The position numbers were made by a program, and so were the translations under genes. A stretch of 64,000 nucleotides of DNA from Chloroflexia bacterium (GTDB lineage Bacteria; Chloroflexota; Chloroflexia; DTKN01): positions 19,276-83,275 of the forward strand of contig DAOTVY010000015.1 in assembly GCA_034436115.1 (NCBI GenBank), given 5' to 3'. The notes below the pieces were generated by a model. It was given only the letters and a program-made list of their open reading frames with translations. It was not told the origin of the DNA and did not search any database. This document shows, piece after piece, positions 10,208 to 52,260 of the stretch (its first letter is position 1; each line of letters starts with the position of its first letter).

Positions 10208-10234
10208 AAAAAAGGGGGCAATTCCAATGCCCCT
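10208..10234 (-). terminator. Intrinsic terminator after tRNA-Arg
   Basis: GGGGCA/TGCCCC stem followed by a T6 tract on the minus strand. Confidence 0.7.
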
Positions 10235-10237
10235 GAG

Positions 10238-10310
10238 TGCCCCTGGACGGACTCGAACCGCCGACGCAGGGTTTAGGAAACCCTCGCTCTATCCACTGAG
10301 CTACAGGGGC
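10238..10310 (-). tRNA. tRNA-Arg (anticodon CCT)
   Basis: Acceptor GCCCCTG/CAGGGGC, D arm GCTCAGTGGATAGAGC, anticodon arm AGGGT-TTCCTAA-ACCCT, T loop TTCGAGT; CCA not encoded. Confidence 0.97.
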
Positions 10311-10418: not shown

Positions 10419-11714
10419 GTGTACAGGCGCCTCTTCCGTGTCCGAGCGGTTGCCTGTGTCGACCTGCTGCTTCTGGCTTTTGCGATCGCCTATGGAACGG
10501 CGCTCGGATACGAGCTATGGCAACAGGCACTTACGTGGAGAACTCGACACCAGGGCCTGGATTTCCCCTCGTATTACCTGGCCGCCCGACAGGTGGTAAG
10601 AGGCGCGGACCCTTACTCTGGGCTTCGGACCGAGGCCCGTCTTCTGCTGGGCATGGAGGACTATTTCATCGATAGCGCGGTCGGGCCGCCAGCGTTTGTC
10701 TTCGCTCTAACTCCGCTGGCGCTGCTCCCGTATCCAGCCGCTTGGGCTGTATGGCAGATCCTCTCCCTAGCCGCGCTCGTGGGTTCACTCCTCTGGATCC
10801 TCCACGCGCTGCGTCCGGGCCTGTCGACCTGGGAACGGATCCTCCTGGGGAGCGGTGTCGTCCTGTTTCCTCCGCTGACCTTTCACCTCGTGTATGCCCA
10901 CACGGAGTTGTTCTTGCTACTCACGCTGGTGGCCGCGTGGCTTTGCCTGCGGCGGGGAAAGCAGGCACCGGCCGGTATGCTTCTGGGGTTGGCGGTCTCA
11001 ACGCGCCTGTATCCGGCGCTCCTCCTCCTTTTCCTGGCCCAGCGCAAATTCTGGAAAGCGCTGGCAACGACGATCGGGACCGCCGCCGGCGTGTGTGTCC
11101 TCGCGGGGGCGATCATGGGTCCGACTTCGTACCTTCGGTACTGGGCGGTTCTGCGGGAGGTCATCCCAACGCTATATGCACGTCAGGGGAACTTTTCGCT
11201 TTGGGGAAGTGTGCATAAAGTCGCCGCCCTCTGGCCGCCCCTGTCGCAGCGGCCCTGGCTCCGAGATGGCCTGGCCTACCTGCTGTCCGTGGGGGTCGTT
11301 GCACTGACCTTTCTCCTCGGGGCACGCCACCACGAGCCGCCACCCCAGGGACCGTGCGTCGACCTGTTCTCGCTGGACTGGGGCTATGCGCTCTACATCG
11401 TTGCCTGTCTGCTCGCTTCGCCGCTTTCCTGGGCGAACTACCAGGTGCTACTTTACGGTCCGCTGATCCTCCTTTGGACAACCCTCAAGCGGCGTCCCAG
11501 CCGGCCTAGCCTTTGGGCGGCGGGAGCGGGTCTTGCCGCTTCTCTGGCACCCCTGTTGGACCTCTGGCCACACCACCCTCGGGGGATCACGTGGTTCCAA
11601 ACCTTTGGTCCTACGCTGACATTGGTAGGGATCTTCCTGGCGCTGGCGGTATTGCCGCGCGAGCGCGCGATGCTCCAGGATACGGCTCGGGCCCTGCCGC
11701 AAGGAACGGCCTAG
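10419..11714 (+). CDS. Glycosyltransferase family 87 / DUF2029-like polytopic membrane protein (GT-C)
   Basis: About 10 TM segments; GLDFPSYYLAARQVVRGADPY, PPAFVFALTPLALLPY, SPLSWANY. GTG 10419 behind GGGAGG; ATG 10389 is an alternative start. Confidence 0.75.
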   Translation: MYRRLFRVRAVACVDLLLLAFAIAYGTALGYELWQQALTWRTRHQGLDFPSYYLAARQVVRGADPYSGLRTEARLLLGMEDYFIDSAVGPPAFVFALTPLALLPYPAAWAVWQILSLAALVGSLLWILHALRPGLSTWERILLGSGVVLFPPLTFHLVYAHTELFLLLTLVAAWLCLRRGKQAPAGMLLGLAVSTRLYPALLLLFLAQRKFWKALATTIGTAAGVCVLAGAIMGPTSYLRYWAVLREVIPTLYARQGNFSLWGSVHKVAALWPPLSQRPWLRDGLAYLLSVGVVALTFLLGARHHEPPPQGPCVDLFSLDWGYALYIVACLLASPLSWANYQVLLYGPLILLWTTLKRRPSRPSLWAAGAGLAASLAPLLDLWPHHPRGITWFQTFGPTLTLVGIFLALAVLPRERAMLQDTARALPQGTA

Positions 11715-12475
11715 CCTTTTTCCAGGACCAGCATCCCGGCAGCGAGCAGCGCTTCGGTCAGTGCTGGTGCCGGGATCAGGCGCAACCGGTAGGTCTGCCA
11801 CAGGAAGCGCTCGAGGTGGACAAAGACCTCGCTTCGGGTCAAGTTGACCTTCCAGGCACGGCCCACATCGGCAAAGGCCAGGCTCCGCCGCCAGGCTGGA
11901 TGGCCGACGTAGCGTTCGCTCAAGGGGGCCACGGCTGGCAAGGGGAGCGGGCAGAGGGTCAAGACAAAAGCGTCAACCAGGGGGCCGAAGAGCACCGGAA
12001 ACGGCCGTACAAGCACGTAATGTTGCCGCTCGCCCGCACAGAAAGTTGCCCCGCCCCAGGTGGTTTCACCCACTGCGGCCCCTCCGGGACCCAGGCAAGA
12101 GATCTCCTGGAGGTAAATGCTAAACGCGGAAAGCAAGTCCGCGGCGGAAACCGTCCTGCCGGGGAGCGGCAACGGCCCCTCCAGGAGCGAGCGGCCGACC
12201 TGGTGGGCCAATTCGGCGCGGCGCTCCTGAGGCACGGCCCAGCGACCGACGCCGCAGCTCTCTAGAAGGCCTTCGTCGGCGAAGGTGGCCACCAGCTCGG
12301 CAAACGATGCCCCAGGATAGCACCAGTGGAAGAAGGGCTCGATCGCTTCCGAAGGCACCTCGCTCCATCCCAGGAGAAGATGGGCATCCAGCCAGGGAGC
12401 CAACAAGTGCAGCGGATCAGGAGCGAGCTGCCCCAGATCCCCATCCTGCTCTGGTCCTTGCTCAGAGCGGCTCAA
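11711..12475 (-). CDS. Hypothetical protein overlapping the end of the chlD-like ORF
   Basis: 254-aa ORF, TTG start behind AAGGAGG, overlapping the end of the upstream VWA ORF by 14 bp; no recognised motif. Confidence 0.65.
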   Translation of the reverse strand: MSRSEQGPEQDGDLGQLAPDPLHLLAPWLDAHLLLGWSEVPSEAIEPFFHWCYPGASFAELVATFADEGLLESCGVGRWAVPQERRAELAHQVGRSLLEGPLPLPGRTVSAADLLSAFSIYLQEISCLGPGGAAVGETTWGGATFCAGERQHYVLVRPFPVLFGPLVDAFVLTLCPLPLPAVAPLSERYVGHPAWRRSLAFADVGRAWKVNLTRSEVFVHLERFLWQTYRLRLIPAPALTEALLAAGMLVLEKG

Positions 12476-13400
12476 CCGGACCTCCTTTCGGGGGATTGCC
12501 CGGCCCAGTGCTACGGGCCTTTTCCAAATCCTTGAGGGCCTGCTGGAGGGCACGCCGTGTCAGGCGGGAAAGCGGAAGGTACCGGCCACGGCTCAAAGCG
12601 GCCATCTGGCGACAGTTGCTCCGGCCGGCCTCTTGTCCGGCGGGCTCGGTGTCGACGACCAGCGTGGCGATCCGTTCCCAGGCGAGCCTTCGGCACAAAC
12701 GCGCCACTTCGTCGTAGGGATCATCCCCCTGCCGGATGGCCACGTTCGGCAGACCATCGGTGACCACCACGAGCACTGGGATCGCGTTGCGATGCTTCAG
12801 CCGTTCCTGTGACAGCAGCCGATGCGCTTTCCAAATCGCATCCGGCAGCGGGGTCGAGCCACTTACCGGGATACGACGGAGCCGCGCCGCCGCGCGCGCC
12901 AGACTGCTCGTGGGAGGGAGAAAGACCGTTGCATCAGGCTTCCGACTGTGGCGGAAGGCCACCAGAGCCACCCGGTCATGGTGATGGTACGCGTCGCGCA
13001 ACAGGTCCAGCACGACCGCCTTCACGCGCTCCAGCGTCTTCTCCACGTGGATGGACCAGCTGTTGTCGACGATGAACGCGATCGCGTAGGGCGAGCGGTG
13101 CCGGCGCAGCCTTTCCCGAAGGTCCTCGGGCTGCACCTCCAGCTTGCCCCCTCCTTGTCCGACCGCACGTGCTGCTGCCGCGCGTAGCGTGGCATCCAGG
13201 GCAACATCCTCGATCCCGTTGTGAGGAAACCGCGGGCGCGTGTATTTTCCACGCCGCCGATGGACGATCGCCGTGTCCCGCAACCCGCTTGCTGCCCGCA
13301 ACTCTGGCGGCCGCCGCCGGGGGAAGCGAAAAACCTCCTGCGTCTCCGTTGTTTCTTCTCCGATGTCAGGCTCCGAAAGCGCCAAGCCCGCTAGCTCCAC
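12462..13400 (-). CDS. chlD: ChlD/CobT-like von Willebrand A domain (3' half of a frameshifted chlD-like gene)
   Basis: [51 protein letters not shown]; frame stays open upstream to the A9 run at 13428-13436. Confidence 0.85.
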
Positions 13401-14491
13401 GGGCTCTCCGCGCTCAGAGGGGTGGTCTTTTTTTTTACCTCCAAGGGGACACCCAGGATATCCTCAAGCCGACGCCGGATGGTCAGCGGGTCGAGTTGTG
13501 CCCCGACGGCGAAGGGATCGCGGGGCAGGCGATGCCCCAGCGCGAGCAGCGTCGCCTCGTACACGTCGCCGGGCTGTACCTCCAAACGCCCGTCCAGTGC
13601 GGCAAGGGTCTTGGCGCATTGGAGGATCGTGATATCCGCGCGGTGGCTACGTACCTCGGAGCGTACGGTGAGCTCGGCGATGGCACGGTATAAGCCATCG
13701 GGGACGTGGACGCGGGGAAGCCGCTCCACGGCTTCCTGGATGCGCTGCCGCAGTCGCTCCTGCGCATCCTGGTACCGTTGCAGGAAAGCGACCGGATTTG
13801 CGGCGAACGCCTCCCGCCGCCTCATGACCTCAACCCGTTCCTCCTCATCTAGGAGGGCATCGATCTCCACCTGCAGCCCGATCCGGTCGGCGATCTGCGG
13901 GCGAAGTTCCCCTTCCTCCGGGTTCATCGTCCCGACCAGGAGGAAACGAGCCGGATGGCTCACGGAGACCCCCTCGCGTTCCACGATGTTCACCCCGAGG
14001 GCGGCGGCATCCAGGAGAAGATCCACGATATGGTCGTCCAGGAGATTGATCTCGTCGATATACAGGATGCCACGATGGGCCTCGGCTAGCAGGCCAGGCT
14101 CCAACGCACGGACGCCTTCCCGCAAGGCCCGGGTAATGTCCAGAGTGCCGGCCACGCGGTCTTCGGTCGCATTGAGCGGCAGGTTGACCAGGCGGCGCGG
14201 CCGTACCAAGACAGGAAGCCTTTCCCCGCGAGCACTGCGTTCCTGGCAAGAAGCACACTGCGCCTGGGGATCGCGGGGGTCGCACTGGAAGGGACAGTCC
14301 GCGACCACCTCGATGGGTGGCAGGAGCGCGGCCAGACCGCGTACGGCGGTCGATTTGGCGGTGCCACTGGGACCACGGATCAGGACGCCCCCGATCTCGG
14401 GGTTCACCGCGTTCAGCACCAGCGCGGTCTTGAGCCTCTCCTGCCCGACAATCGCGGTGAAGGGATAGAGGATGGGGTAAATGTCCTGCAA
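13391..14491 (-). CDS. chlI: Magnesium/cobalt chelatase ChlI-like AAA+ ATPase (5' half of the chlD-like gene)
   Basis: [16 protein letters not shown], Walker [45 protein letters not shown]; TTG start behind GAGGTGA. Confidence 0.92.
13427..13442 (-). other. Programmed -1 frameshift / transcriptional slippage site
   Basis: Minus strand GGAGGT-AAAAAAAAA-G: nine A's containing the in-frame heptamer A-AAA-AAG; a -1 shift joins the ChlI ORF to the VWA ORF with no stop. Confidence 0.8.
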
Positions 14492-14504: not shown

Positions 14505-14545
14505 CCCGGGGACGAGCGCCGGGCGTCCCAGCGCTCGTCCCCGGG
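14505..14545. repeat. Perfect 15-bp inverted repeat between the ThDP enzyme and chlI
   Basis: CCCGGGGACGAGCGC (14505-14519) / GCGCTCGTCCCCGGG (14531-14545); no U tract. Confidence 0.9.
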
Positions 14546-14561
14546 TTGCAGCGGATCACAC

Positions 14562-16343
14562 CTATGTACGGACGCGCCGCTTGCCAAAGGTCGGTTCGGC
14601 GGGCGGGATGGGGGGCATCTGCCAGGTTCCGGTGATCGGCACGGGTGTGTCGCGGTTGATGATCACGTCGATCAGGGTCGGGCGTCCCGACTTCAGGGCG
14701 TGTTCGAATGCCGGAGCAAAATCGCCGGGACGCTCGATGCGGATCCCCTCGGCGCCCATCGCCTCGGCCATCTTGGCAAAGTCCGGGTTCCACAGCTCGC
14801 CGGTCTTGACCTTCATGAAGCTCGTACCGATCTCCCGGCCATCCAGGTAGAAGCGCTGGAGGTCGCGAATGCAACCAATGGAGTAGTTGTTAAAGACTAC
14901 CCAGACGACCGGGAGGTCGTACTCCACGGCGGTAGCCACCGCGTGGGGCGTCATCATGAAGCCACCGTCGCTGCAGACGTTCACGCACGGGGATTCGGGC
15001 CGGGCTAGCTTGGCGCCCAGGACGCCGCAGACCCCGAAGCCCATCGCGGCAAACCCGCCGGGGCTGATATGGGTCAGCGGTCGCGGCGTGTCCCAATACT
15101 GCTCGACCCATGCCTGGTTATTGCCCACATCGGCCACCAGGATGGTATCCGGCGGGGCAATGCGCCGCATATCCATCAGGATGCGCCGCGGGTCGATCGG
15201 CACTTCTTCGTTCGTCGCGTAAGGCCGGATAAAGTTCTCCCAGGCGGTCTTGTATTCGTAGATCTCCTCCAACCACGCCTTGCTGTCGCGCTGGATCCCT
15301 TTTGCCTTGGCCATTTCCAACATCTGCGCCAGGAAAGCCTTGGCATCGGCCACGATCCCCAGTTCGACGGGGTAGTTGCGGCCGATCTCGCTCGGGTCGA
15401 TATCGACGTGGATGAGTTTGGTCGGGGGGATGTTGTAGATATAGCCCGGCAGCCAGGAGGCGCAATGGAGGTCGGAGAAACGGGCTCCGATGGCCAGGAT
15501 GACGTCCGCGTTGCGGGCTGCCTCCGCCGCGGGGTAGTGGCCCCAGCACCCAGCGACGCCCAGGTAGAGCGGATCGCCCTCGGCCATGGCCCCTTTGCCC
15601 ATGAGCGTCGTGTAGACCGGGATTTCGAGATAGGTCGCGAGCGCTTTCAGCTCCTCAGTCGCCCCAGAGACCATGACGCCTCCGCCTGCCAGGATCAGCG
15701 GGCGTGCGGCCTTGGCCAGGAGGTCCAGCGCCTTTTCCACCGCCTCGGGCGAAGCGGGCGTGCGCCAGTGCATGGGGCGGGACCACTGTTCCGGATCTGG
15801 GATCTCGACGTCGGCCTTATGGATGTAGAGGTCGTAGGGGATGTCGAAATGACAGGGGCCTGGCCGGCCGGTGCGCATCAGCTTGAAGGCCTTGGGGAGG
15901 TAGCGCACCAGGTCCTCGACCTTGCGGATTTGCCAGGAGTGCTTGACGATCGGCTTGAGCACCGAGGGGAAGTCGCCGGGGAAGTACCGGTACTCCTCCT
16001 GCAGGGCCCCGGTATCGAACTGATCCGTGGTGACCTGTCCGGTTACCACCAGGAATGCCGAAGAATCGTAGAAAGCGTTGGCCACAGCGATGGTCAGGTT
16101 CATCGGGCCGGGCCCGGTGGAGGCATACACGAGCAGCGGGACGCCGGTCAGGCGGAAGTAGACGTCGGCAATGAACCCCGCCGCCTGCTCCACGCGCGGC
16201 CAGATGACACGGATCTTGTCCTGGCGGTCGTAAATGCCGTCCAGCAGGCCGATGGCCCCATGACCGGCATAGCCGATGACGTAGGGCACCTTCTCTTTGA
16301 TCAGGTACTCAGCGATGATCTCGCAGCCCCGATACTCCGCCAT
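14562..16343 (-). CDS. Thiamine diphosphate-dependent enzyme, acetolactate synthase-like superfamily
   Basis: IGYAGHG, RVEQAAGF (catalytic Glu), STGPGPMN, ADVGNNQ, GGFAAMGFG, SDGGFMM...FNN; ATG 16343 behind GGAGGT. Confidence 0.9.
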   Translation of the reverse strand: MAEYRGCEIIAEYLIKEKVPYVIGYAGHGAIGLLDGIYDRQDKIRVIWPRVEQAAGFIADVYFRLTGVPLLVYASTGPGPMNLTIAVANAFYDSSAFLVVTGQVTTDQFDTGALQEEYRYFPGDFPSVLKPIVKHSWQIRKVEDLVRYLPKAFKLMRTGRPGPCHFDIPYDLYIHKADVEIPDPEQWSRPMHWRTPASPEAVEKALDLLAKAARPLILAGGGVMVSGATEELKALATYLEIPVYTTLMGKGAMAEGDPLYLGVAGCWGHYPAAEAARNADVILAIGARFSDLHCASWLPGYIYNIPPTKLIHVDIDPSEIGRNYPVELGIVADAKAFLAQMLEMAKAKGIQRDSKAWLEEIYEYKTAWENFIRPYATNEEVPIDPRRILMDMRRIAPPDTILVADVGNNQAWVEQYWDTPRPLTHISPGGFAAMGFGVCGVLGAKLARPESPCVNVCSDGGFMMTPHAVATAVEYDLPVVWVVFNNYSIGCIRDLQRFYLDGREIGTSFMKVKTGELWNPDFAKMAEAMGAEGIRIERPGDFAPAFEHALKSGRPTLIDVIINRDTPVPITGTWQMPPIPPAEPTFGKRRVRT

Positions 16344-16560
16344 GGCAGCGACCTCCTTACAGTGAAAAAATTCCTTCCGGCGTTCGTCGCCAGATCTGCA
16401 CGGGCAACCTTCGTCCTGTGGCTCGACCACCTCCTTTCATGGACTGCGGACCGCCCTGTGTCCGCGACATCCTGCCCGGAAACAGGCGGAGATCCCTTGC
16501 GTGATCCTCTCGCCCCACGGCCTTGGGAAGCTGAACACCCCACCACGCATTCCCCATCTT

Positions 16561-40645: not shown

Positions 40646-41671
40646 TCAGCCCGCGGTCTCTTCCTGGCCCGTCCCTCGCCGTGGGGCCTCAAAAAGGCGT
40701 CCCAGCAGCCACAGCACCAAAACGGTGGCGCCCACCCCCAGAAGCGCCGACACGACATACCCCACCTTCTCCCCCAGGAAAGGCACGGCATAGTCGGGGA
40801 TCGGCGCCTGCCACAGTTCGCTCAGCCGTTCCATGCCGGCCGGGATGAAGCTCAGCCCCGGGATCTCGTCGAGCCCCCACTCGCCCCAGGCTGTACCGGT
40901 AGCGAGCAGCCCAAGGGGCGAAAGAAGGATCAGGAGACCGAGAATGCCCCAGAGGATGTAGACCGGCTTGCGGGCCTGCCCCTCGAGAACCGGCTGCGCC
41001 GCGGGGTCGAGCAATTCCCGGTGGGCCCGCTGCAAGTAGGCAACGACCAGCCCGGTGAGCACCGCCTCCACCGGGCCAGCGATCAGGAGATGCCCGCCCA
41101 TCATCGCAGGGATAGCCACCTCAAGGCCGTAGGGCGCATAGAGCGGGGTACCATCGGCCGCGTGGAACAGCAGGGGCTGGATGCCGAATTCGAGCGCGGT
41201 GAGGAACGCGGCCACGTTCAGCCCCACGTAGCCGGCGACGGCCGCCGCGACGATCCGCCTGGGCGCTTCGAGGGGCGAACGGCCGGCGATCGCCCGGTAG
41301 ACGGCATAGCCGACAAAGGGCATCACTACGGCCATATTGAAACAGTTCGCGCCGATCGCCAGGATACCCCCGTCTCCAAAGAAGAGGGCCTGGATGATCA
41401 GAGCTGCGGAAATCGCCAGCACCGCGTCCCAGGGTCCTAACACAATCGCCGCAATCACCGCGCCAACCGCATGGCCGGTGGTGCCGCCAGGCAACGGGAC
41501 GTTGAACATCATCACCACGAACGAGGCCGCCGCAAAGAGGGCGACGAGCGGCAGCCGCCGTCCGCGCACCCACCCCCGAACGCGCTGCAGCGCCCGAACC
41601 CAGAAAGGCGCCACAGCCGCGTACATCACAATGGAAGTGGATGGGCTCAAGTAGCCGTCCGGAATGTGCAT
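40646..41671 (-). CDS. cbiM: ECF-type Ni/Co transporter substrate component, CbiM/NikM fused to a PDGLE (NikN-like) domain
   Basis: N-terminal MHIPDGYLSP, FNVPLPGGTTGHAVG, QALFFGDGGILAIGAN; C-terminal WGEW...WQAPIPDY; ATG 41671. Confidence 0.9.
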   Translation of the reverse strand: MHIPDGYLSPSTSIVMYAAVAPFWVRALQRVRGWVRGRRLPLVALFAAASFVVMMFNVPLPGGTTGHAVGAVIAAIVLGPWDAVLAISAALIIQALFFGDGGILAIGANCFNMAVVMPFVGYAVYRAIAGRSPLEAPRRIVAAAVAGYVGLNVAAFLTALEFGIQPLLFHAADGTPLYAPYGLEVAIPAMMGGHLLIAGPVEAVLTGLVVAYLQRAHRELLDPAAQPVLEGQARKPVYILWGILGLLILLSPLGLLATGTAWGEWGLDEIPGLSFIPAGMERLSELWQAPIPDYAVPFLGEKVGYVVSALLGVGATVLVLWLLGRLFEAPRRGTGQEETAG

Positions 41672-41682
41672 AGGACACCTCC

Positions 41683-42117
41683 TTACGCCTCGCCTTTCGC
41701 CTGGCAATCTGCACAGACGCCCGTGACCGATAGGTGCTGGAGATCGGGTTCGAAACCGTAACGCGCGCGGCAGCGCTCGCCCAACGGCTCCAGCAAGTTT
41801 TCCTCCGCTTCGATCACCCGGCCACAGTGGCGACAGACGAGGTGGAGATGGGGGCCGTGGCGCGCTGTCGCGTAAACGATCCTCCCGCTCCCCAGGTCAT
41901 TCCGACTGGCCAGACCTTCGCTGACGAGAAAGTCCAGCGTCCGGTAGACGGTCGCCAGGTTGATGGAGCGCGTGCGGGCCTGCACCTGCGCGTAGACTTC
42001 TTCGGCCGTCACGTGCCGGCCGCTGTGGGCGATCGCCTCGATGACCATCTCCCGCTGGGGAGTGATTCGGTAGCCTTTTTGGCGCAGCGCGGCAATCAGT
42101 GTATGGCAATGGGGCAT
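41683..42117 (-). CDS. Fur family metalloregulator
   Basis: GYRITPQREMV, HVTAEEVY, INLATVYRTL, HLHLVCRHCG, GVCADC; ATG 42117 behind AAGGAG. Confidence 0.95.
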   Translation of the reverse strand: MPHCHTLIAALRQKGYRITPQREMVIEAIAHSGRHVTAEEVYAQVQARTRSINLATVYRTLDFLVSEGLASRNDLGSGRIVYATARHGPHLHLVCRHCGRVIEAEENLLEPLGERCRARYGFEPDLQHLSVTGVCADCQAKGEA

Positions 42118-42133
42118 TGCAACTCCTTGCTCT

Positions 42134-42179
42134 TGCAATTATTCGCACATATTCTACCATAGGGCTGTCCAAATGTCAA
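42134..42179 (-). promoter_or_regulatory. Promoter of fur-cbiM with a downstream near-palindromic candidate operator
   Basis: TTGACA-17-TAGAAT (42179-42151) with extended TG; TGCAATTATTCGCA (42134-42147) lies at the start-site/leader. Confidence 0.7.
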
Positions 42180-43423: not shown

Positions 43424-46303
43424 GTGAAAGCAGCCGGGGTGGTCGTACTCCTCGTCCTGCTGGGGGCGCTCGCGTTAGCCTGGGCAGCCGGTGATCTCGC
43501 GCCTCGTGCTCCAGCGGACACCCCTTGCGCCCCCCTGGAGCTTCCTACACCCCTTCCCAGCGACGAAGCCGCACTCCGGGCGGCGATGGAAGGGGCCCTC
43601 CGTGCTTGGGCAGCAGCCCATCCCCACAGCAAGCCCCTCCGCCTCGGCCTCGTCTGGGCAGAGGCGGACTGGGCCGCCGGGGAAGTGCACGTCGCTTTTC
43701 CCGACACGTATAGCAGCGAAGGGGCGCTGCTGTTGGCCGAAAGGGCGGCCGAAGGCTGGGAGGTACATTTCCCCGGGGAGCCGTCGTACCTAGCACTCCT
43801 GGAGCGTGGCCCTGCGCGCCACCTACCGCGCCCAGCGTTGGAGGCCCTGCGCGCACAGAGCGGGCCAGCCGTGGGGGACACGAGCGGCCTCTACTACCTC
43901 CCCTACTCCGCCGGTACCTCGGTGCTGGTCACCTGTGTCGATTGCTACCCCGGCCACTTTCCCAGCGTCGACCTGTATAGCTTGGGGGATCGCATCCTGC
44001 GCGCTGCCCGGGACGGGACGGTGGCTGCCTGGCGGGATGTGGGGGATTTCTGCTGCTGCCAGTCGGGCTGCGGCGTTTGCAACAGTTACCTCGTGTTGGA
44101 CCACGGGGATGGCGAATATTCCGCCTACCTCCACTTGGTTTCAGGGAGCATCCCCGAACCGCTCCGCCAGATCGGTGCCTTCGTACCACGCGCGACGGCC
44201 ATCGGCATCGAGGGCGATGTCGGCTATAGCTGCGGCAGCAACCGGCCGGAGGTGGGATGCGGCAGCTTTCTACCGACCCCGGGGCAGGGCTGCGGGCGCC
44301 ACGTGCACTTTGAGGTCCGCGATGCCCCGTACCCCTACGGCCAGCGCCTTCGACCGCGCTTTCAGGACGTTTACGAGCAGACAGAGCCACCCACCTACTA
44401 CCTGGAGGAAGGGCGGATTTATGTCTCGGGAAACCTTCCCCCCAGCCCAACCCCTCTCCCTACCCCAACACCGACCCCTGCGCCCACGCCGACCCCAGGG
44501 GCATGCAACCCGCCTGCCGGCAGCGAGGGGGTCTATCTCTTCAGCGAAGCGCGGTTCTGCGGGTATTTCCACCCGTACCTGGTTTCCGCCCCTGCGATCA
44601 CCACCCCATCTCCCCTGAATGAAGGCGTGTGGTCGATCTCCCTCTTCGGGCCCTATACCGCCACCCTCTTTACCGCGCCGGACTACCAGGGCATTCGGGA
44701 AACGTTCCTCGACGGCGACGAGGACCTTTCGGATAACCCCATCTCGACCGAGACCGCTTCCTTACGCGTGCAGCTGGCGGAATGCCCCGTGATCAGCCCA
44801 GGCCTCGTGCTCTATACCTCTTCCGGGTACAGCGGCGCCTGCCGGCGCTTCGGGGAAAGCGACCCGGACCTGGAAGACGATGGCTTGGCGGGGAGCGTGC
44901 GTTCGCTTCGGCTGGTCGGGCCTTATACCGTTACGCTCTACGCGGGCGCGGGGTATACCGGGCCGGCCGAGACGTTTGCCAGCGACGTCCCAGATCTCCT
45001 GGAGCATCCTCTCGGGCGCAACATCCGCTCCTTTCGCCTGGGCTCCCGCCTATGCAATCCTCAGGCCGAAGGGGTGACCGTATTCGCCTTGCCCAGCTAT
45101 GCCGGGGCCTGCCGGACGTTGGTTACCGCCACTGCGGACCTGTCCTCTACCTTGGGGATGATCCCTCGCTCGATCTGGCTGCAAGGCCCCTTTCACGCAG
45201 TCCAGTACGCGGCGCCCGGCTTTACCGGCACGCAGGAACTCCTGCTGGTGAGCGACCCAGACCTGACCGACAACCCGGCCTTTCCGGCGCGCTCGCTGCA
45301 GGTGGTGGGCGGTTCGTGCCTGCCGTGGCGTGAAGGGGTCACGCTCTTTGCGGGATCGGGGTTTAGCGGCGGCTGTCTCACCTTGCGCACAAGCGATCCA
45401 GACCTCTCCGCGAGCGGGTTGGCGGGACATGTGGGATCGATCCGGATCCGTGGACCATACCGGCTGACGCTTTACGCCCTTCCCGGGTTCGCGGGACCCG
45501 CGGAGCAGATCGACCGCTCGGACCCCGACCTTTCGGACAATCCGGTGGGCGTGCAGGCGGCATCCGTGCAACTGGAGCGGATCCCCTGCAACGCTGGTCA
45601 CGGCGGGGTCACTCTCTGGGCACAGCCCGGTTACGACGGCGTTTGCACCACGCTTCGCAGCGACGACGCCGATCTCGGGAACGATGGAATCGGCCGGGAG
45701 AACGCCTTCTCCTTGCGCATCATCGGTCCCTATAGCGTAACCCTGTATTCCGGCGTGGGCTTTACGGGAACACCGGCGGTTGCGCTGGGTGACCTCCCGG
45801 ACCTGGGCAACACCCCGTTCGCCGGTTCCGTCGCCTCCGCGCGCGTACGGCCACTCGGCGTGACACCGCGCCTATGGAACGACCTGCGCCCGTTTGCGCT
45901 CCCGCTTCAGGTTTCCACCCATCCGGCTTGGTATCTCCAGGAAACTGGATATACCTCCAGCAGCCCCGACGACCCCGTGTTGAGCTGCACGGGCAGCAGC
46001 GGGACCCGCACCCTTTGGTATCGGGTATCGGGGAACCAGAGCGCGGTGTTGCACGCGCAAGGCATGGGCCTTGCCGGTCTGGCCCTAGCCCTGTGGACGG
46101 AAGGGCCGGCCGGCCTGCGGGAACTCGCTTGTGGGTCGGGCGAAACGCCCACCCTGCAAGCCGTGATGCTCGCGGGAAGGCCCGTATGGCTCGAGGCCAG
46201 TATTGCTGGGCCTGGAAGCGGCACCCTCGCGCTCCAGGTGTGGCAGAGCCGCCCGTTCGCGATCTACCTGCCCCTGGTCGTACGCGGCCCATCGAGCCCC
46301 TGA
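43424..46303 (+). CDS. Secreted M23 peptidase with five beta/gamma-crystallin-like domains and a C-terminal YLPLV motif
   Basis: Signal peptide; GHFPSVD, LDHGDG..SAYLHL, HVHFEVR; PT-rich linker; ten repeats of G/Y-V-T-L-Y/F...Y/F-x-G...D-P-D-L...S-x-R; ends IYLPLVVRGPSSP. Confidence 0.85.
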   Translation: MKAAGVVVLLVLLGALALAWAAGDLAPRAPADTPCAPLELPTPLPSDEAALRAAMEGALRAWAAAHPHSKPLRLGLVWAEADWAAGEVHVAFPDTYSSEGALLLAERAAEGWEVHFPGEPSYLALLERGPARHLPRPALEALRAQSGPAVGDTSGLYYLPYSAGTSVLVTCVDCYPGHFPSVDLYSLGDRILRAARDGTVAAWRDVGDFCCCQSGCGVCNSYLVLDHGDGEYSAYLHLVSGSIPEPLRQIGAFVPRATAIGIEGDVGYSCGSNRPEVGCGSFLPTPGQGCGRHVHFEVRDAPYPYGQRLRPRFQDVYEQTEPPTYYLEEGRIYVSGNLPPSPTPLPTPTPTPAPTPTPGACNPPAGSEGVYLFSEARFCGYFHPYLVSAPAITTPSPLNEGVWSISLFGPYTATLFTAPDYQGIRETFLDGDEDLSDNPISTETASLRVQLAECPVISPGLVLYTSSGYSGACRRFGESDPDLEDDGLAGSVRSLRLVGPYTVTLYAGAGYTGPAETFASDVPDLLEHPLGRNIRSFRLGSRLCNPQAEGVTVFALPSYAGACRTLVTATADLSSTLGMIPRSIWLQGPFHAVQYAAPGFTGTQELLLVSDPDLTDNPAFPARSLQVVGGSCLPWREGVTLFAGSGFSGGCLTLRTSDPDLSASGLAGHVGSIRIRGPYRLTLYALPGFAGPAEQIDRSDPDLSDNPVGVQAASVQLERIPCNAGHGGVTLWAQPGYDGVCTTLRSDDADLGNDGIGRENAFSLRIIGPYSVTLYSGVGFTGTPAVALGDLPDLGNTPFAGSVASARVRPLGVTPRLWNDLRPFALPLQVSTHPAWYLQETGYTSSSPDDPVLSCTGSSGTRTLWYRVSGNQSAVLHAQGMGLAGLALALWTEGPAGLRELACGSGETPTLQAVMLAGRPVWLEASIAGPGSGTLALQVWQSRPFAIYLPLVVRGPSSP

Positions 46304-46625: not shown

Positions 46626-46657
46626 AAGGGCGGGCCTTTATGGCTCAGCCCTTTTTT
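46626..46657 (+). terminator. Terminator after tRNA-Asp, overlapping the citE stop
   Basis: AAGGGCGGGCC/GGCTCAGCCCTT hairpin followed by a T tract. Confidence 0.6.
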
Positions 46658-47522
46658 CTTCCTCCAGTTGCTCGGCCAGCGCCAGGAGCCGCCGCGCGCG
46701 CTCGACGATCGGCCGATCGATCATCTTGCCGTCGAGCGCGATTGCCCCGCGTCCCTCGCGCTCGGCCTCCTCAAACGCCGCCAACACGCGACGCGCCTCC
46801 GCGACCTCCGCTTCGCTTGGGGAAAGCAGGCGGTTCACCACCGGGACCTGTCGAGGATGGATCACCTGCTTGGCCCGATACCCCAGCTGCCGCCCGACGG
46901 TCGTGTTGTGCACCAGGCCTGCCTCGTCGTCGATCCGCGGATAGACCATGTCGATCGGCTGCACCCCAGCGGCGCGGGCCGCAAGGACCACCAGTTGCCG
47001 TGCCACCAGCAACTCCGTGGCTTCCTCGGTACGCATCATCCCGGCATCGAGCGAGAGATCCTCCCCGCCGAAGATCAGCCCGACCACCCGCGGATCCGCT
47101 GAGGCGATGGCGTAAGCATTCAGTACGCCCAGCGCGGTCTCGATCGTCGCCAGGATCCCCAGCGGCTCGGCGATCCCGCGTTCCTTCTCTGCCTCGGCCA
47201 GCCACGCGATCACCGTCCGCAACCCCTCGGCATCCTGCACCTTGGGAAGGCAAAGCCCGGCCAAGCCCGGCTGCACGACGGCCGCGATGTCCTCCTGGGC
47301 AAGTCCGCTGCCGTGGGCGTTCACGCGGACAAAAACGGTCCGCGCACCCTCGAGGATCTGTGGCAGCATCTCGCGCACCAGGCTGCGCGCGGCCGCCTTT
47401 TCGGGAAGGGGGACCGAGTCCTCCAGGTCAAGGATTAGCGCATCCGCACCGAGGCTGGGTGCCTTGGCGAGCATGTTAGGCCGGTTTCCCGGGACATACA
47501 GGAGCGTTCGCAGCAGGCGCAT
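46638..47522 (-). CDS. citE: CitE-family (citryl-/malyl-/citramalyl-CoA) lyase
   Basis: RTLLYVPGNR, DALILDLEDSV, FVRVN, LPKV, TIETALG, FGGED, IHPRQV, GKMIDRP; ATG 47522. Confidence 0.92.
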   Translation of the reverse strand: MRLLRTLLYVPGNRPNMLAKAPSLGADALILDLEDSVPLPEKAAARSLVREMLPQILEGARTVFVRVNAHGSGLAQEDIAAVVQPGLAGLCLPKVQDAEGLRTVIAWLAEAEKERGIAEPLGILATIETALGVLNAYAIASADPRVVGLIFGGEDLSLDAGMMRTEEATELLVARQLVVLAARAAGVQPIDMVYPRIDDEAGLVHNTTVGRQLGYRAKQVIHPRQVPVVNRLLSPSEAEVAEARRVLAAFEEAEREGRGAIALDGKMIDRPIVERARRLLALAEQLEEEKRAEP

Positions 47523-47526
47523 GGGG

Positions 47527-47745
47527 CTACTCCTCGTAGAGCTTGTGCAGGCGCAGCGCGCCCGATGGGCACTGCTCCAGGCACAAACCACACAGCGTGC
47601 ACTCGTCCTCGTTCGCCGGATCGGTCAGGAGTTCGTTTCCCTCCAGACGGAAAACGTCCACCGGGCAAACGCGCACGCAAGTTCCACAAGCGTCTGGCCG
47701 GGGGCAGCGCGCGTGGTCCACTTCCAGGCGGATGAACAGGCCCAC
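47527..47745 (-). CDS. 2x[4Fe-4S] ferredoxin
   Basis: GTG 47745: CPRPDACGTCVRVCP and CTLCGLCLEQCP; 72 aa. Confidence 0.9.
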   Translation of the reverse strand: MGLFIRLEVDHARCPRPDACGTCVRVCPVDVFRLEGNELLTDPANEDECTLCGLCLEQCPSGALRLHKLYEE

Positions 47746-47746
47746 T

Positions 47747-48661
47747 TCAGACCTCCTTGGCTGCCCGATCGAGGGCCTCGCGTACGAGCGCGGGCACCTC
47801 CGAGAGGCGCTGAGCCACGAGCACCCCGGCCGCGCGCAGAGCACGCTCCTTGCTCTCCACCCGGCCACGGTCCCCTTCCACGAGCACCGCGGCGTGCCCG
47901 AAGCGTTGTCCGGGCATCCGGTCCACAAATCGGCCAGCCAGGAAGGCCACGACCGGCAACCGAGGACGGTGGGTAGCCACATACTCGGCCAGCGCTTCTT
48001 CCTGCACACCGCCCGGTTCTCCGAACACAACCACGGCTCTTGTGTCGGGGTCGCCCTCCAAGAGGGGCATCAGGTCGACGAAGGTGGTCCCGACGAGTGG
48101 GTCTCCTCCGATGCTCACGCAGATGCTCTGGCCAAGGCCCGACTGCGTGAGGAGGCTCGCCAGTTCGGTGGTCATCCCGCCGCTTCGGGAAAGCACTGCC
48201 ACGGGGCCCGGGGTATAAGCGCGTCGTACATCTTGCGCCGGGCCCCCGACCATGCCGATCTTGACCTTGCCCGGAAGGAGGATTCCCAAGCTGTTGGGGC
48301 CGATGATCCGGGCACCTCGGTGCCGCGCCCAGGCGATGACCTCGGCAACATCTCGCCGGGGAATGCGCTCCGTGACGATGACCAGCAGCCTCAGCCCGTG
48401 TTCCAGCGCCTCCAGCGCCGCTTCCCGAACGGCCGCCGGCGGGACGCTGATTACGGATGCCTCAGCCGGGTGCTCCCGAAGCGCCTGCGCCAGGCTATCG
48501 TACACCGGTACGCCGTAGACCGTGGTACCGCCCTTACCCGGGGTTACCCCGGCAACCACCTGGGACCCATAGTCCAGCATGTGCCGGGTAAAGGTCACGG
48601 CTTCGCGCCCGGTGATCCCTTGGACGACGATACGGGTGGATGGATCGGCCAGAACGGTCAT
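47747..48661 (-). CDS. ADP-forming acid--CoA ligase alpha subunit (SucD/CcsB family)
   Basis: IVVQGITGRE, VAGVTPGKGG, IIGPNSLG, LSRSGGMTTE, SIGGDP, phospho-His FGHAA; ATG 48661 overlaps the beta-subunit stop. Confidence 0.9.
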   Translation of the reverse strand: MTVLADPSTRIVVQGITGREAVTFTRHMLDYGSQVVAGVTPGKGGTTVYGVPVYDSLAQALREHPAEASVISVPPAAVREAALEALEHGLRLLVIVTERIPRRDVAEVIAWARHRGARIIGPNSLGILLPGKVKIGMVGGPAQDVRRAYTPGPVAVLSRSGGMTTELASLLTQSGLGQSICVSIGGDPLVGTTFVDLMPLLEGDPDTRAVVVFGEPGGVQEEALAEYVATHRPRLPVVAFLAGRFVDRMPGQRFGHAAVLVEGDRGRVESKERALRAAGVLVAQRLSEVPALVREALDRAAKEV

Positions 48662-49860
48662 GCCGAACGACTCCTTTCCACCGCCAGGCGTGCCGCCTCG
48701 TCGATGGAAACGCTGCGGTCGCAGAAAGCGATCCCATAGCGGCGCAGGATCTTGGTGCCCTCGTCTTCCCACGCGCCCGGGATGCGAAAGACGGCGATCG
48801 TTTCGCTCGGATCGAGGCCCAGATCCACGATTCCGGCGATGACGCCGCGTGCCACCAAGTCAACCCGCGTGTTGCTGACCACGTTCATGATGACGGCCAG
48901 GCGACGCACGCCAGGTTTGGAGAGGATGTGGCGCGTCAGCGCACGGATCTTGCGCACGCTCGGGTTGCCTCCGATCTCGCAGTAGTTCGCCGGCCGGCCC
49001 CCATGGGCCAGGATCGCGTCGAACACTGTCAGGCTCGCACCGCCTCCTCCGATGAGCAAGCCCAGGTTGCCATCGAACTCGACCACCCGCCCGGCCACAC
49101 CCCGGTGGTCCATCGCATCGATCTCCGCCGCCGCCTGCTCGAAGGGGGTCGGAGGGCGGACAGCCGTGGGCCGCGGGACAATGCCATAGACCTTGCTGAG
49201 CTCCGGATGGCGCCCGAGCGCTTCATCCTCCAGCTCGATGTGGGCGTCGAGCGCAAGGAGCTTCCCCTCGCCCATCCGTCGCAGCGGGTTGACTTCTGCT
49301 ACGGTGGCGTCGAAGCGATAGAACAGCTCGTAGAGCCGGCGAACTGCGTCCCCGAAAGCGAGCAGGTCCGGGCCCTGCAGCGACAGGGCGGCTGCGACCT
49401 CCCGGCCCTTGTAGCCGCCGAACGGCCAAGCCATGTCGACCGGGATACGCACCAGGCCCGTGGGTGCCTCCGCGGCTGCCTGCTCGACGTCCACGCCACC
49501 CTCCAGACTGGCCAGGATGACGGGCGACCGGAGGTACGAGTCGTAGGTCACCGCGAGGAACCACTCCGGCCCGTCCGGCACCGCGGCCTCGACCAGCAGC
49601 TCCTCCACGCGATAACCCAGGAGCTCCGCGCCGAGGAGCTCCGCCGCGACCTGCCCCGCCTCCGTAGCCGTGTGGGCGGAGCGCACACCGCCGGCTTTCA
49701 TGCGCCCACCGCGAGGCACCTGGATTTTGAGCACCACCGGCAAACCCAGGCGCTCCGACGCTTCCTGGGCTGCCTCGGGTGTGCGCACACGCACGCCTTC
49801 AGGGACAGGGATCCCTTGCTCCTTCAACAGCACTTTCGCTTCCCATTCACACAACCGCAT
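48658..49860 (-). CDS. ADP-forming acid--CoA ligase beta subunit (SucC/CcsA family, citryl-CoA-synthetase-like)
   Basis: MRLCEWEAKVLL, KIQVPRGGRMKAGGV, EVNPL, ALDA; substrate loop IGGGGASL, ANYCEIGGNP, ILSKPGV, NTRVD; ATG 49860. Confidence 0.88.
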   Translation of the reverse strand: MRLCEWEAKVLLKEQGIPVPEGVRVRTPEAAQEASERLGLPVVLKIQVPRGGRMKAGGVRSAHTATEAGQVAAELLGAELLGYRVEELLVEAAVPDGPEWFLAVTYDSYLRSPVILASLEGGVDVEQAAAEAPTGLVRIPVDMAWPFGGYKGREVAAALSLQGPDLLAFGDAVRRLYELFYRFDATVAEVNPLRRMGEGKLLALDAHIELEDEALGRHPELSKVYGIVPRPTAVRPPTPFEQAAAEIDAMDHRGVAGRVVEFDGNLGLLIGGGGASLTVFDAILAHGGRPANYCEIGGNPSVRKIRALTRHILSKPGVRRLAVIMNVVSNTRVDLVARGVIAGIVDLGLDPSETIAVFRIPGAWEDEGTKILRRYGIAFCDRSVSIDEAARLAVERSRSA

Positions 49861-49862
49861 CT

Positions 49863-50579
49863 TCACGCTCCGAGGCTTCCAGACTTGCCCTGGACAGCCG
49901 GACGATCCCCCAGCAGCTCGCGCCCCCGCGCCACAAGGCGGGTCAGCGGGATCTGCTTGGGGCAGCTGGCCTCCCACCGCTGGGCAGCCTCTGGGGAAAG
50001 GAGGCCTGCCTGCTCCAGGACCCACAGGCGCACCGGACCGAGGAGATCCCTGGGATCCAGAGCAAAGCGGACGCCCTGGGCCAGCGCCGCCGGATTGGGC
50101 GCCGTGCTGCCACCGGCACCGGCCTGGCATGCCCCGCACAGGATGCACAACGCCCCATCCATGGCCGCTTCCACCGTCGTTTGCTCCATCGTTCCGCCAT
50201 AGTCGGGACGGCGCAGAAGCCAGGGGAGAAAAGCGCGCAGCGATTCGAAAAACGGGTCGATGTCCACCACCAGGTCTCGCAGGACAGGAAAGCCCGGAAG
50301 AGGGCCGATGGAAAGGGAGCCCGAAGGATCGAGGACTTCCGGCACCCGGGTCATACAGGCGAGGCGGGGATGGCCGTTGATGGCGACGGCGCAGGAACCG
50401 CAGATGCCGCTGCGACAGGATCGACGAAAGGCCAGGGTGGCGTCGTGCAGGTCCCGGACCTCGAGCAAGAGATCGAGCACGGTCGAGGTCGGGGAGATCG
50501 TCAACCGGAAGCATTGCCAGTACGGCTCGCGGTCCCGGGTGGGGTCAAAGCGTTGTACCAGGAGGTCGAGCGGGGTCAT
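49863..50579 (-). CDS. sdhB: Succinate dehydrogenase/fumarate reductase iron-sulfur subunit, atypical
   Basis: FRRSCRSGICGSCA...LAC ([2Fe-2S]), VLRDLVVD, CILCGAC, SCPKQIP; [3Fe-4S] cysteines absent; ATG 50579. Confidence 0.88.
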   Translation of the reverse strand: MTPLDLLVQRFDPTRDREPYWQCFRLTISPTSTVLDLLLEVRDLHDATLAFRRSCRSGICGSCAVAINGHPRLACMTRVPEVLDPSGSLSIGPLPGFPVLRDLVVDIDPFFESLRAFLPWLLRRPDYGGTMEQTTVEAAMDGALCILCGACQAGAGGSTAPNPAALAQGVRFALDPRDLLGPVRLWVLEQAGLLSPEAAQRWEASCPKQIPLTRLVARGRELLGDRPAVQGKSGSLGA

Positions 50580-50580
50580 C

Positions 50581-52260
50581 TCAGTACTTCCTCCCTGCCG
50601 GCAGGAAACGGGTGATCGACACCGGTCGTTTTTCCAGCACGGGGCCAGCGGGCGAACGACGCGCGATGGTGTGGACCAGCCAGTGCTCGTCGGCGCGCTC
50701 CGGCCAGTCGGTGCGACAGTGGGCCCCGCGGCTCTCGCAACGGTAGAGCGCGCTCGCGGCAATGACTCGGGCAATCTCCAGCAGATGCCCGCACTCGAGG
50801 TACTCTACCACGGCATAGTTGAAACGGGGAGGCCCTGGATCGAGGCGGATTCCCTGGAAGGTTTGCTGGAGGCGTTCGATCTCCTGGCAGGCGGATTCCA
50901 ATCCAGAGGCATCCCGGAAAATCCCCACCTGGTCGGTCATCAGCTGGTTCAGCGCCTTGCGCACGGCGGCGACTGGCTCCCCACGGGCGCCGGAGCAGAT
51001 GCGCCGCAATTCCGACTCCCAGCGGTCGACCGCCCCCTGGATGCTCTCCGCACTCCCCCAAGGCCGTTCGCGGGCAATTTCGGCCGCCCGGCCCCCTGCA
51101 CGCTTGCCAAAGACCCAGGCATCGAGCAGCGAGTTTCCTCCGAGCCGGTTGGCGCCATGGACGCTGACATTGGCGCACTCCCCGGCGGCAAGCAGGCCCG
51201 GGATCTCCGTCTCTCCCCAGGTGTTGCAACGGATCCCGCCCATACTATAGTGCGCGGCCGGCTCGACCGGCAGGGGATGGTGCGCGATGTCAATGCCGGC
51301 GTAAGTGAGCGCCAGCTGCCGTACCTGAGGAAGACGGGCATCGATCTGATCCGCACCCAGATGCGTGAGGTCGAGGGCGACGTAGCCTTCCCCCAACCCA
51401 CGCCCTTCCAGGATCTCGCGGGCGATCGCCCGCGAGACAACATCCCGGGGGGCGAGTTCCATCGCCTCAGGCGCATAGCGCGCCATGAAGCGCTCCCCAT
51501 TGCGGTTCCGAAGGTAGCCTCCCTCTCCCCGGGCCGCCTCGGAGATCAGGATGTTCTTACCGTATAGGCTTGTCGGATGGAACTGCACGAACTCCATGTC
51601 CGCCAGGGGCGCCCCGGCGCGGTAGGCGATGGCCACCCCATCGCCGGTGCAGGCATGGGCGTTGGTCGTCTTGGCATAGACCCGACCATAACCGCCTGTC
51701 GCGAGCACAACTGCTTTGGCGCGGAACCCGTCCAAACGGCCGTTCGCCAGATCCAGGACGACCACACCTTGACAGCCCCGGTCGTCCACCACGAGATCGA
51801 GCAGATGTTGCTCGGGGTAAACGCGTACGCCCCGGCAAAGCAGCTGCTGGTAGAGGCTATGAAGCGCCAGGTGCCCGGTGTAGTCGGCCGCAAAGCAGGT
51901 ACGCGGGAAGCCGGCACCACCGAGGGAGCGCTGGGCGATCCGGCCATCCGGCGTGCGGGAGAAGAGCACGCCCATCTCCTCCAGCTCGGCGATCGCCGCA
52001 GGCCCTTCCTGGCAGAGGATCTCAATCGCTTCCTGATCTCCCAGGTAATCGCTTCCTTTCACCGTGTCCAGGATATGGCGCTCGATGCTGTCGTCCGCCC
52101 CCAACGCGGCGTTGATCCCGCCCTGGGCGGCGCCGCTGTGGGAACGGGTGGGATAGAGCTTGGAGACGACGCCGACGTCCGCGCCGGCACGCAGTGCCTC
52201 CAGTGCTGCCCGCAGGCCGGCCAACCCGGCACCGATGATCAGCACCTCGTGGTGATGCAT
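50581..52260 (-). CDS. sdhA: Succinate dehydrogenase/fumarate reductase flavoprotein subunit
   Basis: [22 protein letters not shown] (covalent-FAD His), [46 protein letters not shown]. Confidence 0.93.

Follow-up and report, generated by a model that had tools for sequence, protein, structure and literature searches.

Can a gene whose reading frame breaks at a run of nine adenines supply both subunits of an AAA+ motor, and if so, which machine slips? The question is raised by a ChlI/ChlD-type gene on the minus strand of contig DAOTVY010000015.1 (GCA_034436115.1, Chloroflexia bacterium), of which we analysed a stretch of 64,000 nucleotides (hereafter the window, to which coordinates refer unless another locus is named). 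Here, an open reading frame (ORF) for a ChlI/BchI-like ATPase runs through nine A's (A9) and stops shortly afterwards, and the -1 frame is open from the run into a von Willebrand factor A (VWA) domain. A preliminary description, made from the sequence of the window, had proposed that -1 recoding yields both ChlI and ChlD from this one gene. The proposal is supported by comparison with relatives, specifically by the run, the peptide of the -1 frame and the junction of the closest syntenic relative (L088). We regard it as probable that the gene gives two proteins by -1 recoding at A9 and that RNA polymerase is mainly responsible for the shift. The production of both proteins, the ratio between them and the identity of the slipping machine are points that we infer from the comparisons described below.

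Reading frames and the A9 run

The features of the locus are listed in Table 1, and all that had been observed initially is borne out. Across the junction, the 0 frame reads GAG GTA AAA AAA AAG ACC ACC CCT CTG AGC GCG GAG AGC CCG TGG AGC TAG, in agreement with the 366-aa ChlI frame containing EVKKKT that had been read from the sequence initially; the motif GAGGTG is located 4 nt upstream of its TTG start. The Walker A (GPSGTAKS, from residue 40) and Walker B (LYIDE) motifs are both intact. A shift after the AAG codon would give a ChlD-like fusion of 355 + 321 = 676 aa (75.1 kDa), as previously calculated, with an intact metal-ion-dependent adhesion site (MIDAS) motif (DNSWS) at residue 476. 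Pfam matches are Mg_chelatase and AAA_lid_2 in the ChlI part, and VWA_2 and VWA in the -1-frame part.

The fusion aligns end to end with the NCBIfam model TIGR02442 ('putative cobaltochelatase', the ChlD-type medium subunit; positions 1-640 of 641, 679 bits), bearing out its size as that of a full ChlD, while the 366-aa ORF alone covers positions 1-319 of the model. It also covers positions 1-603 of the 608 in TIGR02031 (BchD-ChlD; 372 bits), and TIGR02030 (BchI-ChlI) matches residues 9-328 with 421-423 bits (E = 6e-127). However, the curated cut-offs of these three models (779, 500 and 467 bits, respectively) are all unreached, and because of this we withhold the status of equivalog of any named chelatase subunit. 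Its domains and motifs place the gene in the ChlI/ChlD AAA+/VWA superfamily, as a member that looks functional. Its fusion has the domain order of BchI/BchD and the CobN-associated ChlI/ChlD proteins (AAA+, AAA lid, acidic/Pro linker, and VWA carrying MIDAS), but the BchI/BchD/TIGR02442 families have GTGKS in Walker A where the window gene has GTAKS. The word 'chelatase' in the preliminary description is a name for the family rather than a demonstrated function, given the scores under the cut-offs and the lack of a large-subunit gene in the window.

The run is more than a chance occurrence. It is the sole homopolymer of at least eight bases on both strands of the window, which has a GC content of 65.2%, and only 0.016-0.033 A/T runs of nine or more bases are expected in 64 kb (based on base or dinucleotide composition). 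Among lysine codons in the window genes, AAA accounts for only 26%. The run is also placed exactly at the ChlI/VWA junction, and both its length and the in-phase dnaX-type heptamer A_AAA_AAG had been described correctly. On the plus strand, the T9 and a weak hairpin at 13404-13424 are flagged as terminator-like (13404-13436, +). We rejected an antisense intrinsic terminator at this site: terminator-like matches are not enriched (5 found vs 3.6 expected), no plus-strand gene ends at the T9, and the run is kept in relatives with different flanks. We judge this signal to be a by-product of the sense-strand signal.

Genes of this kind are known as frameshifted chlD (fs-chlD). Conserved -1 recoding at poly-A has been reported, with reporter tests, for a 'magnesium chelatase' cluster of 23 genes that includes Herpetosiphon (Antonov et al., 2013; PMC3711429), and the chelatase site A_AAA_AAR is under purifying selection (Atkins et al., 2016; PMC5009743). 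In Chloroflexi, fs-chlD also occurs in genomes without the large subunit and without B12 or chlorophyll pathways ('stage 1'), where its function is unknown (Kuznetsov et al., 2022; PMC9227772). The window gene shares with this class a ChlI/BchI-homologous upstream ORF, an overlapping VWA ORF in the -1 frame that completes a full-length medium subunit, a conserved A-rich junction site and an annotation as two genes. The class is found in Chloroflexi, with Herpetosiphon and Anaerolineae named in the papers. Since these sequence-level features of the class are all present, the gene is by this measure a new fs-chlD member, in a probable Chloroflexota genome. Two cobalt chelatase subunits reportedly come from one chlD, going by the title of a 2020 article by Antonov (Mol Biol Evol 37:2268).

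The recoding itself is thus already known, and what we add is modest: in-frame relatives that bear the run, a closed third frame and a conserved non-chelatase gene cluster. PMC3711429 and PMC9227772 do not name the lineage of the window or describe the cluster, in which ChlI/D stands between a thiamine pyrophosphate (TPP) enzyme and a 255-aa protein. We also found in these two papers neither in-frame relatives that keep the A run nor the closure of the third frame near it.

Table 1. Features of the ChlI/ChlD locus and its flanks (window coordinates)
Feature	Position	Strand	Details
A9 slippery run (T9 on plus strand)	13436..13428	-	exactly nine A's; site of the frame change
Heptamer A_AAA_AAG	13427..13433	-	in phase (codon phasing); possible -1 ribosomal shift site
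GGAGGT	13442..13437	-	abuts the run on its 5' side; encodes part of L-E-V (from sequence)
0-frame ORF, ChlI/BchI-like AAA+ ATPase	13391..14491	-	366 aa, 40.5 kDa; TTG start at 14491, TAG stop
0-frame stop TAG	13391..13393	-	AAG codon, then 11 sense codons, then TAG
-1-frame continuation	12462..13428	-	acidic linker and VWA domain with MIDAS; open to TGA at 12462-12464
TGA in third frame (fusion frame -1)	13414..13416	-	would end A8/A11 products after ...KK(K)RPPL, at 358 or 359 aa
Predicted 49-nt hairpin	13419..13371	-	dG -28.6 kcal/mol; begins 8 nt 3' of the run and 7 nt 3' of the heptamer
19-bp inverted repeat	14505..14545		95% complementary, without U-tract; between TPP stop and ChlI start
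Acetolactate-synthase-like TPP-dependent enzyme (upstream neighbour)	14562..16430	-	Pfam TPP_enzyme_N, _M, _C; real start probably internal, ~16343
Uncharacterised ~254-255-aa protein P0121 (downstream neighbour)	11711..12475	-	start overlaps ChlD stop by 14 nt

Conservation of the run and the frame break

We compared the window with 80 loci from GTDB species representatives, as well as with the closest clade, fetched via matches to the short ChlI-like protein and the downstream protein. The VWA part lies in the -1 frame in 18 of the 80 loci, and all 18 carry between seven and ten A's (A7-A10) at the junction, most commonly A9. Seven further close relatives are split in the same manner (L084, L085, L086, L088 and L090 with A9, L083 and L087 with A10; L083 is the same contig as L003), bringing the -1-split relatives to 25 in addition to the window, all with A7-A10. 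Whether orthologues keep the A run and the frame break at the same place had been suggested as a check on the recoding, and all 25 do. The closest clade is -1-split throughout and includes L003/L083 (A10) and L004 (A7). In two other loci, L035 (A10) and L056 (A9), a run occurs at the same place and the contig ends before the VWA part. None of the 80 loci or the close relatives would require a +1 shift at such a run. The precise arrangement of the window, GTA AAA AAA AAG, recurs in L088, L090, L085, L008, L018, L026, L040 and L071.

The closest syntenic relative, L088, is a metagenome-assembled genome (MAG) labelled Chloroflexia, whose copy of the gene is 79% identical to that of the window at the nucleotide level. 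The two share the gene order dNK, TPP enzyme, ChlI, VWA, unknown protein, GT87, MutL, M28 peptidase and AIM24. The L088 junction reads GAC GTA AAA AAA AAG ACC ACC and calls for a -1 shift in the same phase, and its 0 frame likewise stops 11 codons later. Given this identical arrangement, neither an assembly artefact nor recent decay into a pseudogene is a reasonable explanation. Homopolymers are error-prone, and the window differs essentially by one A from the orthologue L001 (GTA AAA AAA AAA G.. in L001 vs GTA AAA AAA AAG), such that a true genome with A10 would simply carry a plain in-frame chlD. However, the same A9, phase and -1 requirement are seen in the independent assemblies L088 and L090, the spacing of the 0-frame stop is unchanged in L088, and 25 of the 28 run-bearing relatives are -1-split. 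A sequencing or assembly error is therefore very improbable.

The other 3 of these 28 relatives are in frame and keep the run: L001 (A10, 67% GC, at 11059-11068 of its locus), L057 (A9, 57% GC) and L091 (A10, 71% GC, CAA AAA AAA AAC). The best full-length homologue (P0001; 68% identity, syntenic) is in frame with ten A's (GAA GTA AAA AAA AAA GCC) on a 67% GC contig, and is found in two assemblies. That GC-rich, in-frame relatives keep the run is expected if the run itself makes a second product in either polarity. In L001, L057 and L091, slippage would make the short form, which implies the polarity of Thermus dnaX. A9 (-1) and A10 (in-frame) states with the same flanks both occur among close relatives, as they would if replication slippage toggled the run between split and fused states within a population and so turned the long form on and off. 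We consider such DNA-level phase variation extremely improbable: the out-of-frame states are always -1 and never +1, the state does not vary among species-level relatives, and the near stops in both off frames, together with purifying selection on both products, better fit simultaneous production.

The peptide of the -1 frame is conserved across the clade from the first codon after the run, as seen in the window, L088, L084 (TDHSDDESIELIASVLQPA), L003 (TADTDGQPVELAVLASQAP) and the in-frame L001 (AAEDGGQIVDVAIALAQPP). The 0-frame tails are divergent among relatives and end after 6-11 codons, and no start codon near the junction is conserved in the relatives compared. This pattern shows the -1 frame to be under selection and, as far as peptide conservation can tell, translated from the run onward.

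All the split relatives that we fetched are annotated as two genes, as the preliminary description had anticipated for automated annotation. The window itself has the makings of two ordinary genes: a GTG at 13400 overlaps the TAG of the ChlI-like ORF and has an SD (Shine-Dalgarno)-like GGAGAG 3 nt upstream, from which a separate VWA protein could be made by translational coupling, with no fusion. This seems hardly credible, as the GTG is a GTC in L088, the -1-frame peptide is already conserved upstream of the GTG, in-frame fusions exist among the orthologues, and the TIGR02442 alignment of the fusion continues across the linker; two separate genes would also leave the conserved A run without explanation. 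The ORFs at 13391-14491 and 12462-13400 are hence best recorded as a single recoded gene that has two products, not as two genes or a pseudogene.

RNA polymerase or ribosome

From mRNA with the template-length A9, the 366-aa ChlI-like AAA+ ATPase would be translated. In a fraction of expression events, a shift to the -1 frame inside the run would give the 676-aa ChlD-like protein (AAA+, acidic linker, VWA/MIDAS), and the two products would come together in an I/D-type AAA+ motor complex of the usual kind. Reiterative slippage by RNA polymerase on the nine-base run would produce a mixed mRNA population, for which we predict the 676-aa fusion from A10 transcripts and short forms of 358, 366, 359 and 367 aa from A8, A9, A11 and A12 transcripts, respectively. 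The A8, A11 and A12 products are short because both non-fusion frames close quickly, after 11 codons in the 0 frame and 4 codons in the third frame of the window. Part of the shift may also come from -1 frameshifting by ribosomes on the in-phase A_AAA_AAG.

In the -1 programmed ribosomal frameshifting (PRF) cassette of E. coli dnaX, the heptamer A_AAA_AAG is accompanied by an SD-like element about 10 nt on the 5' side and a stem-loop 5-9 nt on the 3' side. A purely translational shift in the window would be of this type, with tandem slippage on the heptamer, the 3' hairpin and perhaps the GGAGG as stimulators, and no significant role for RNA polymerase. Several observations would suit it. The heptamer is identical to that of E. 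coli dnaX and in phase, all relatives with A9 in phase 2 have a G after the run, giving A_AAA_AAG, and there are A7 and A8 relatives with the heptamer exactly in phase. The class is also treated as PRF in the literature (PMC9227772, PMC5009743). On the 3' side, the complementary segments noted previously (CTCT/AGAG and AGCCCG/CGGGCT) turn out to be parts of one predicted hairpin at a dnaX-like position. This hairpin has a z-score of -3.5 with bounds chosen after folding, compared with -0.57 for the 88-nt stretch (7th percentile of local windows).

The hairpin of the window is real but lineage-specific, and even its closest relatives have not kept it. The matching segments in L088, L090 and L001 are unstable (z +0.4 to +0.9), RNAalifold finds 0 consensus pairs across nine close relatives, and the per-locus 3' folds show no general excess over the local background. 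For these reasons, we rejected a 3' stimulatory structure as a conserved element. On the 5' side, the GGAGGT that had been pointed out is indeed present and abuts the run, but the GGAGG is only 2-3 nt from the heptamer, unlike the spacing of about 10 nt in a dnaX-type stimulator. It is also specific to the window, with relatives having different upstream 9-mers (gattgaagt, gatcgagtt, ggtgactcg, gctggacgt and others), and we rejected it as an SD-like stimulator and hence as a dnaX-type accessory. Nor is there a sign of a slippage-stimulating 5' hairpin, as the segments upstream of the run fold less stably than the local background in the window, L001 and L003.

E. coli dnaX further differs in having a bare heptamer rather than nine A's, and in that its shift shortens the product, whereas the shift in the window would lengthen it. 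A run length of nine is modal in all three codon phases among the relatives, rather than the seven of a bare heptamer. The third frame, which a pure -1 PRF does not require to be closed, has a stop no more than five codons after the run in 23/26 loci, compared with roughly 5-15% (mean ~12%) of control positions in the same genes, uncorrected for relatedness. This near stop often arises from a T-ending codon followed by GAx, a combination that is unusual at this third-position GC content (GC3). Shifted product also increases with run length: in E. coli reporters with chelatase cassettes from other class members, it reached 63% with 11 A's, 40% with 9 and 10% with 7 (PMC3711429). AAG is the preferred lysine codon in the window genes, making a tightly pairing tRNA-Lys(CUU) likely, and a dedicated AAG-reading tRNA-Lys has been argued to disfavour ribosomal slippage on A_AAA_AAG in Thermus (PMC5009743). 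Taken with the hairpin and GGAGG results, these observations make a shift by the ribosome without the polymerase unlikely.

Slippage by RNA polymerase has a precedent in Thermus thermophilus dnaX, where it occurs in transcription on a run of nine A/T bases (PMC5009743, PMC3711429). The window gene shares with this system a nine-base homopolymer in a GC-rich genome, placed at the junction, near stops in both alternative frames, an AAG-preferring codon usage and two products with a common N-terminal AAA+ module. The protein families are different, and the polarity is reversed: Thermus has the long form in frame and obtains the short one by slippage, whereas the window has the short form in frame and would obtain the long one. 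Because the dnaX-like accessories on the 5' and 3' sides are not conserved and both non-fusion frames close near the run, we favour RNA-polymerase slippage. It had been raised as an option in the preliminary description, and the modal A9, the closed third frame and the lack of conserved accessories now make it the better-supported mechanism.

Some observations weigh against a predominant role for the polymerase. An in-phase A_AAA_AAA or A_AAA_AAG is found in every run, including A7 and A8, meaning that sequence alone cannot separate the two mechanisms. The third-frame-stop statistic ignores the kinship of the loci, and two of them, the in-frame L091 and L004, lack a near third-frame stop. The hairpin of the window is stable, with a spacing suited to frameshift stimulation. 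In an A8 subclade of Anaerolineae-type MAGs (L051, L052 and L072), a hairpin GCUGACCG-N7-CGGUCAGC is conserved approximately 7 nt after the A8 run, with a compensatory C-G to U-A change in L072 (GAUCG/CGAUC). This suggests that the hairpin of the A8 subclade is a genuine -1 PRF stimulator where the run is shorter. Together, the relatives form a natural series, from A7 to A10, in three codon phases, split and in-frame, that can separate polymerase slippage from ribosomal frameshifting in a GC-rich lineage.

Gene neighbourhood and other features of the window

The genes on either side of ChlI/D are kept in every close relative with enough flank. Directly upstream, the TPP-dependent enzyme, which scores under every NCBIfam cut-off, is found in L001, L084, L085, L086, L087, L088, L090, L091 and the P0007 contig; this adjacency thus includes the high-GC in-frame relatives L091 and the P0007 contig. 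Orthologues of P0121 are directly downstream in L001, L083, L084, L085, L086, L088, L090 and L091. Neither P0121 nor 28 homologues match any Pfam or NCBIfam family, and the family is rare (76 representative clusters among 1.84 billion proteins). An AlphaFold2 (AF2) model of P0121 has a predicted local distance difference test score (pLDDT) of 91.3 and a predicted template modelling score (pTM) of 0.88. When this model was compared with the PDB by Foldseek, nothing matched at E <= 0.001, and the similarities that did appear were local and winged-helix-like. We regard P0121 as a candidate for a protein that partners the AAA+/VWA motor or adapts substrates to it.

In L088, L090, L001 and L085, the intergenic spot that holds the inverted repeat between the TPP and ChlI genes of the window is occupied by strong GC-rich hairpins whose sequences differ. 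The repeat of the window may act in the processing, stability or attenuation of the mRNA. A promoter-like site is located upstream of the TPP gene (16589-16561, minus strand). This site and the conserved GC-rich hairpin between TPP and ChlI suggest that the TPP gene, ChlI/D and the rest of the cluster form one operon.

No cobN, chlH or second chlI was found among the ORFs of the 64-kb window. Large-subunit (ChlH/BchH/CobN) and tetrapyrrole genes were also absent from the window and from within 6-10 kb of the locus in L001, L083, L084, L085, L088 and L091, and no other B12 or chlorophyll gene lies beside the ChlI/D locus. An Rfam scan of the window returned three tRNAs only, with no cobalamin riboswitch. 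We rejected a cobalamin link, as there is neither a riboswitch nor cobN/chlH in the window, and a CbiM transporter gene 27 kb away is unconnected. The latter encodes a CbiM-PDGLE fusion (40646-42138, -), the substrate component of a cobalt/nickel energy-coupling factor (ECF) transporter (NF005598, 402.6 bits vs a cut-off of 401). It is preceded and overlapped by a gene for a Fur-family regulator. We found no link between the transporter gene and the ChlI/D locus.

With 'chelatase' being a family name here, the role of ChlI/D could be that of a chelatase motor or some other AAA+/VWA role alongside the TPP enzyme and P0121. Since the neighbours are conserved and the large subunit is missing, ChlI/ChlD-type AAA+/VWA motors would seem to have a so far unexplained role outside tetrapyrrole metal insertion. 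Perhaps, and we put this forward tentatively, the A run is a two-way polymerase slippage device, kept either in frame (A10 in L001 and L091, A9 in L057) or split, and ChlI/D would be part of a three-gene module of new function (acetolactate-synthase-like TPP enzyme, ChlI/D and the ~255-aa family) rather than a CobN/ChlH motor.

Some other features of the window are worth recording. A tRNA-Arg(CCT) gene (10227-10310, -) lies between mutL and the ORF for the GT87 glycosyltransferase; since the listed ATG of this ORF (10227) overlaps the tRNA, its true start must be further downstream. At 43424-46303 (+), a 959-aa protein has an N-terminal hydrophobic segment and repeated beta/gamma-crystallin and peptidase-inhibitor I36-like domains. 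Finally, three carbon-metabolism genes are clustered at 46638-52260 (-), encoding an HpcH/HpaI-type aldolase/lyase, an ATP-grasp_2 and citrate-binding protein that resembles the beta subunit of succinyl-CoA synthetase or ATP-citrate lyase, and a succinate dehydrogenase/fumarate reductase flavoprotein.

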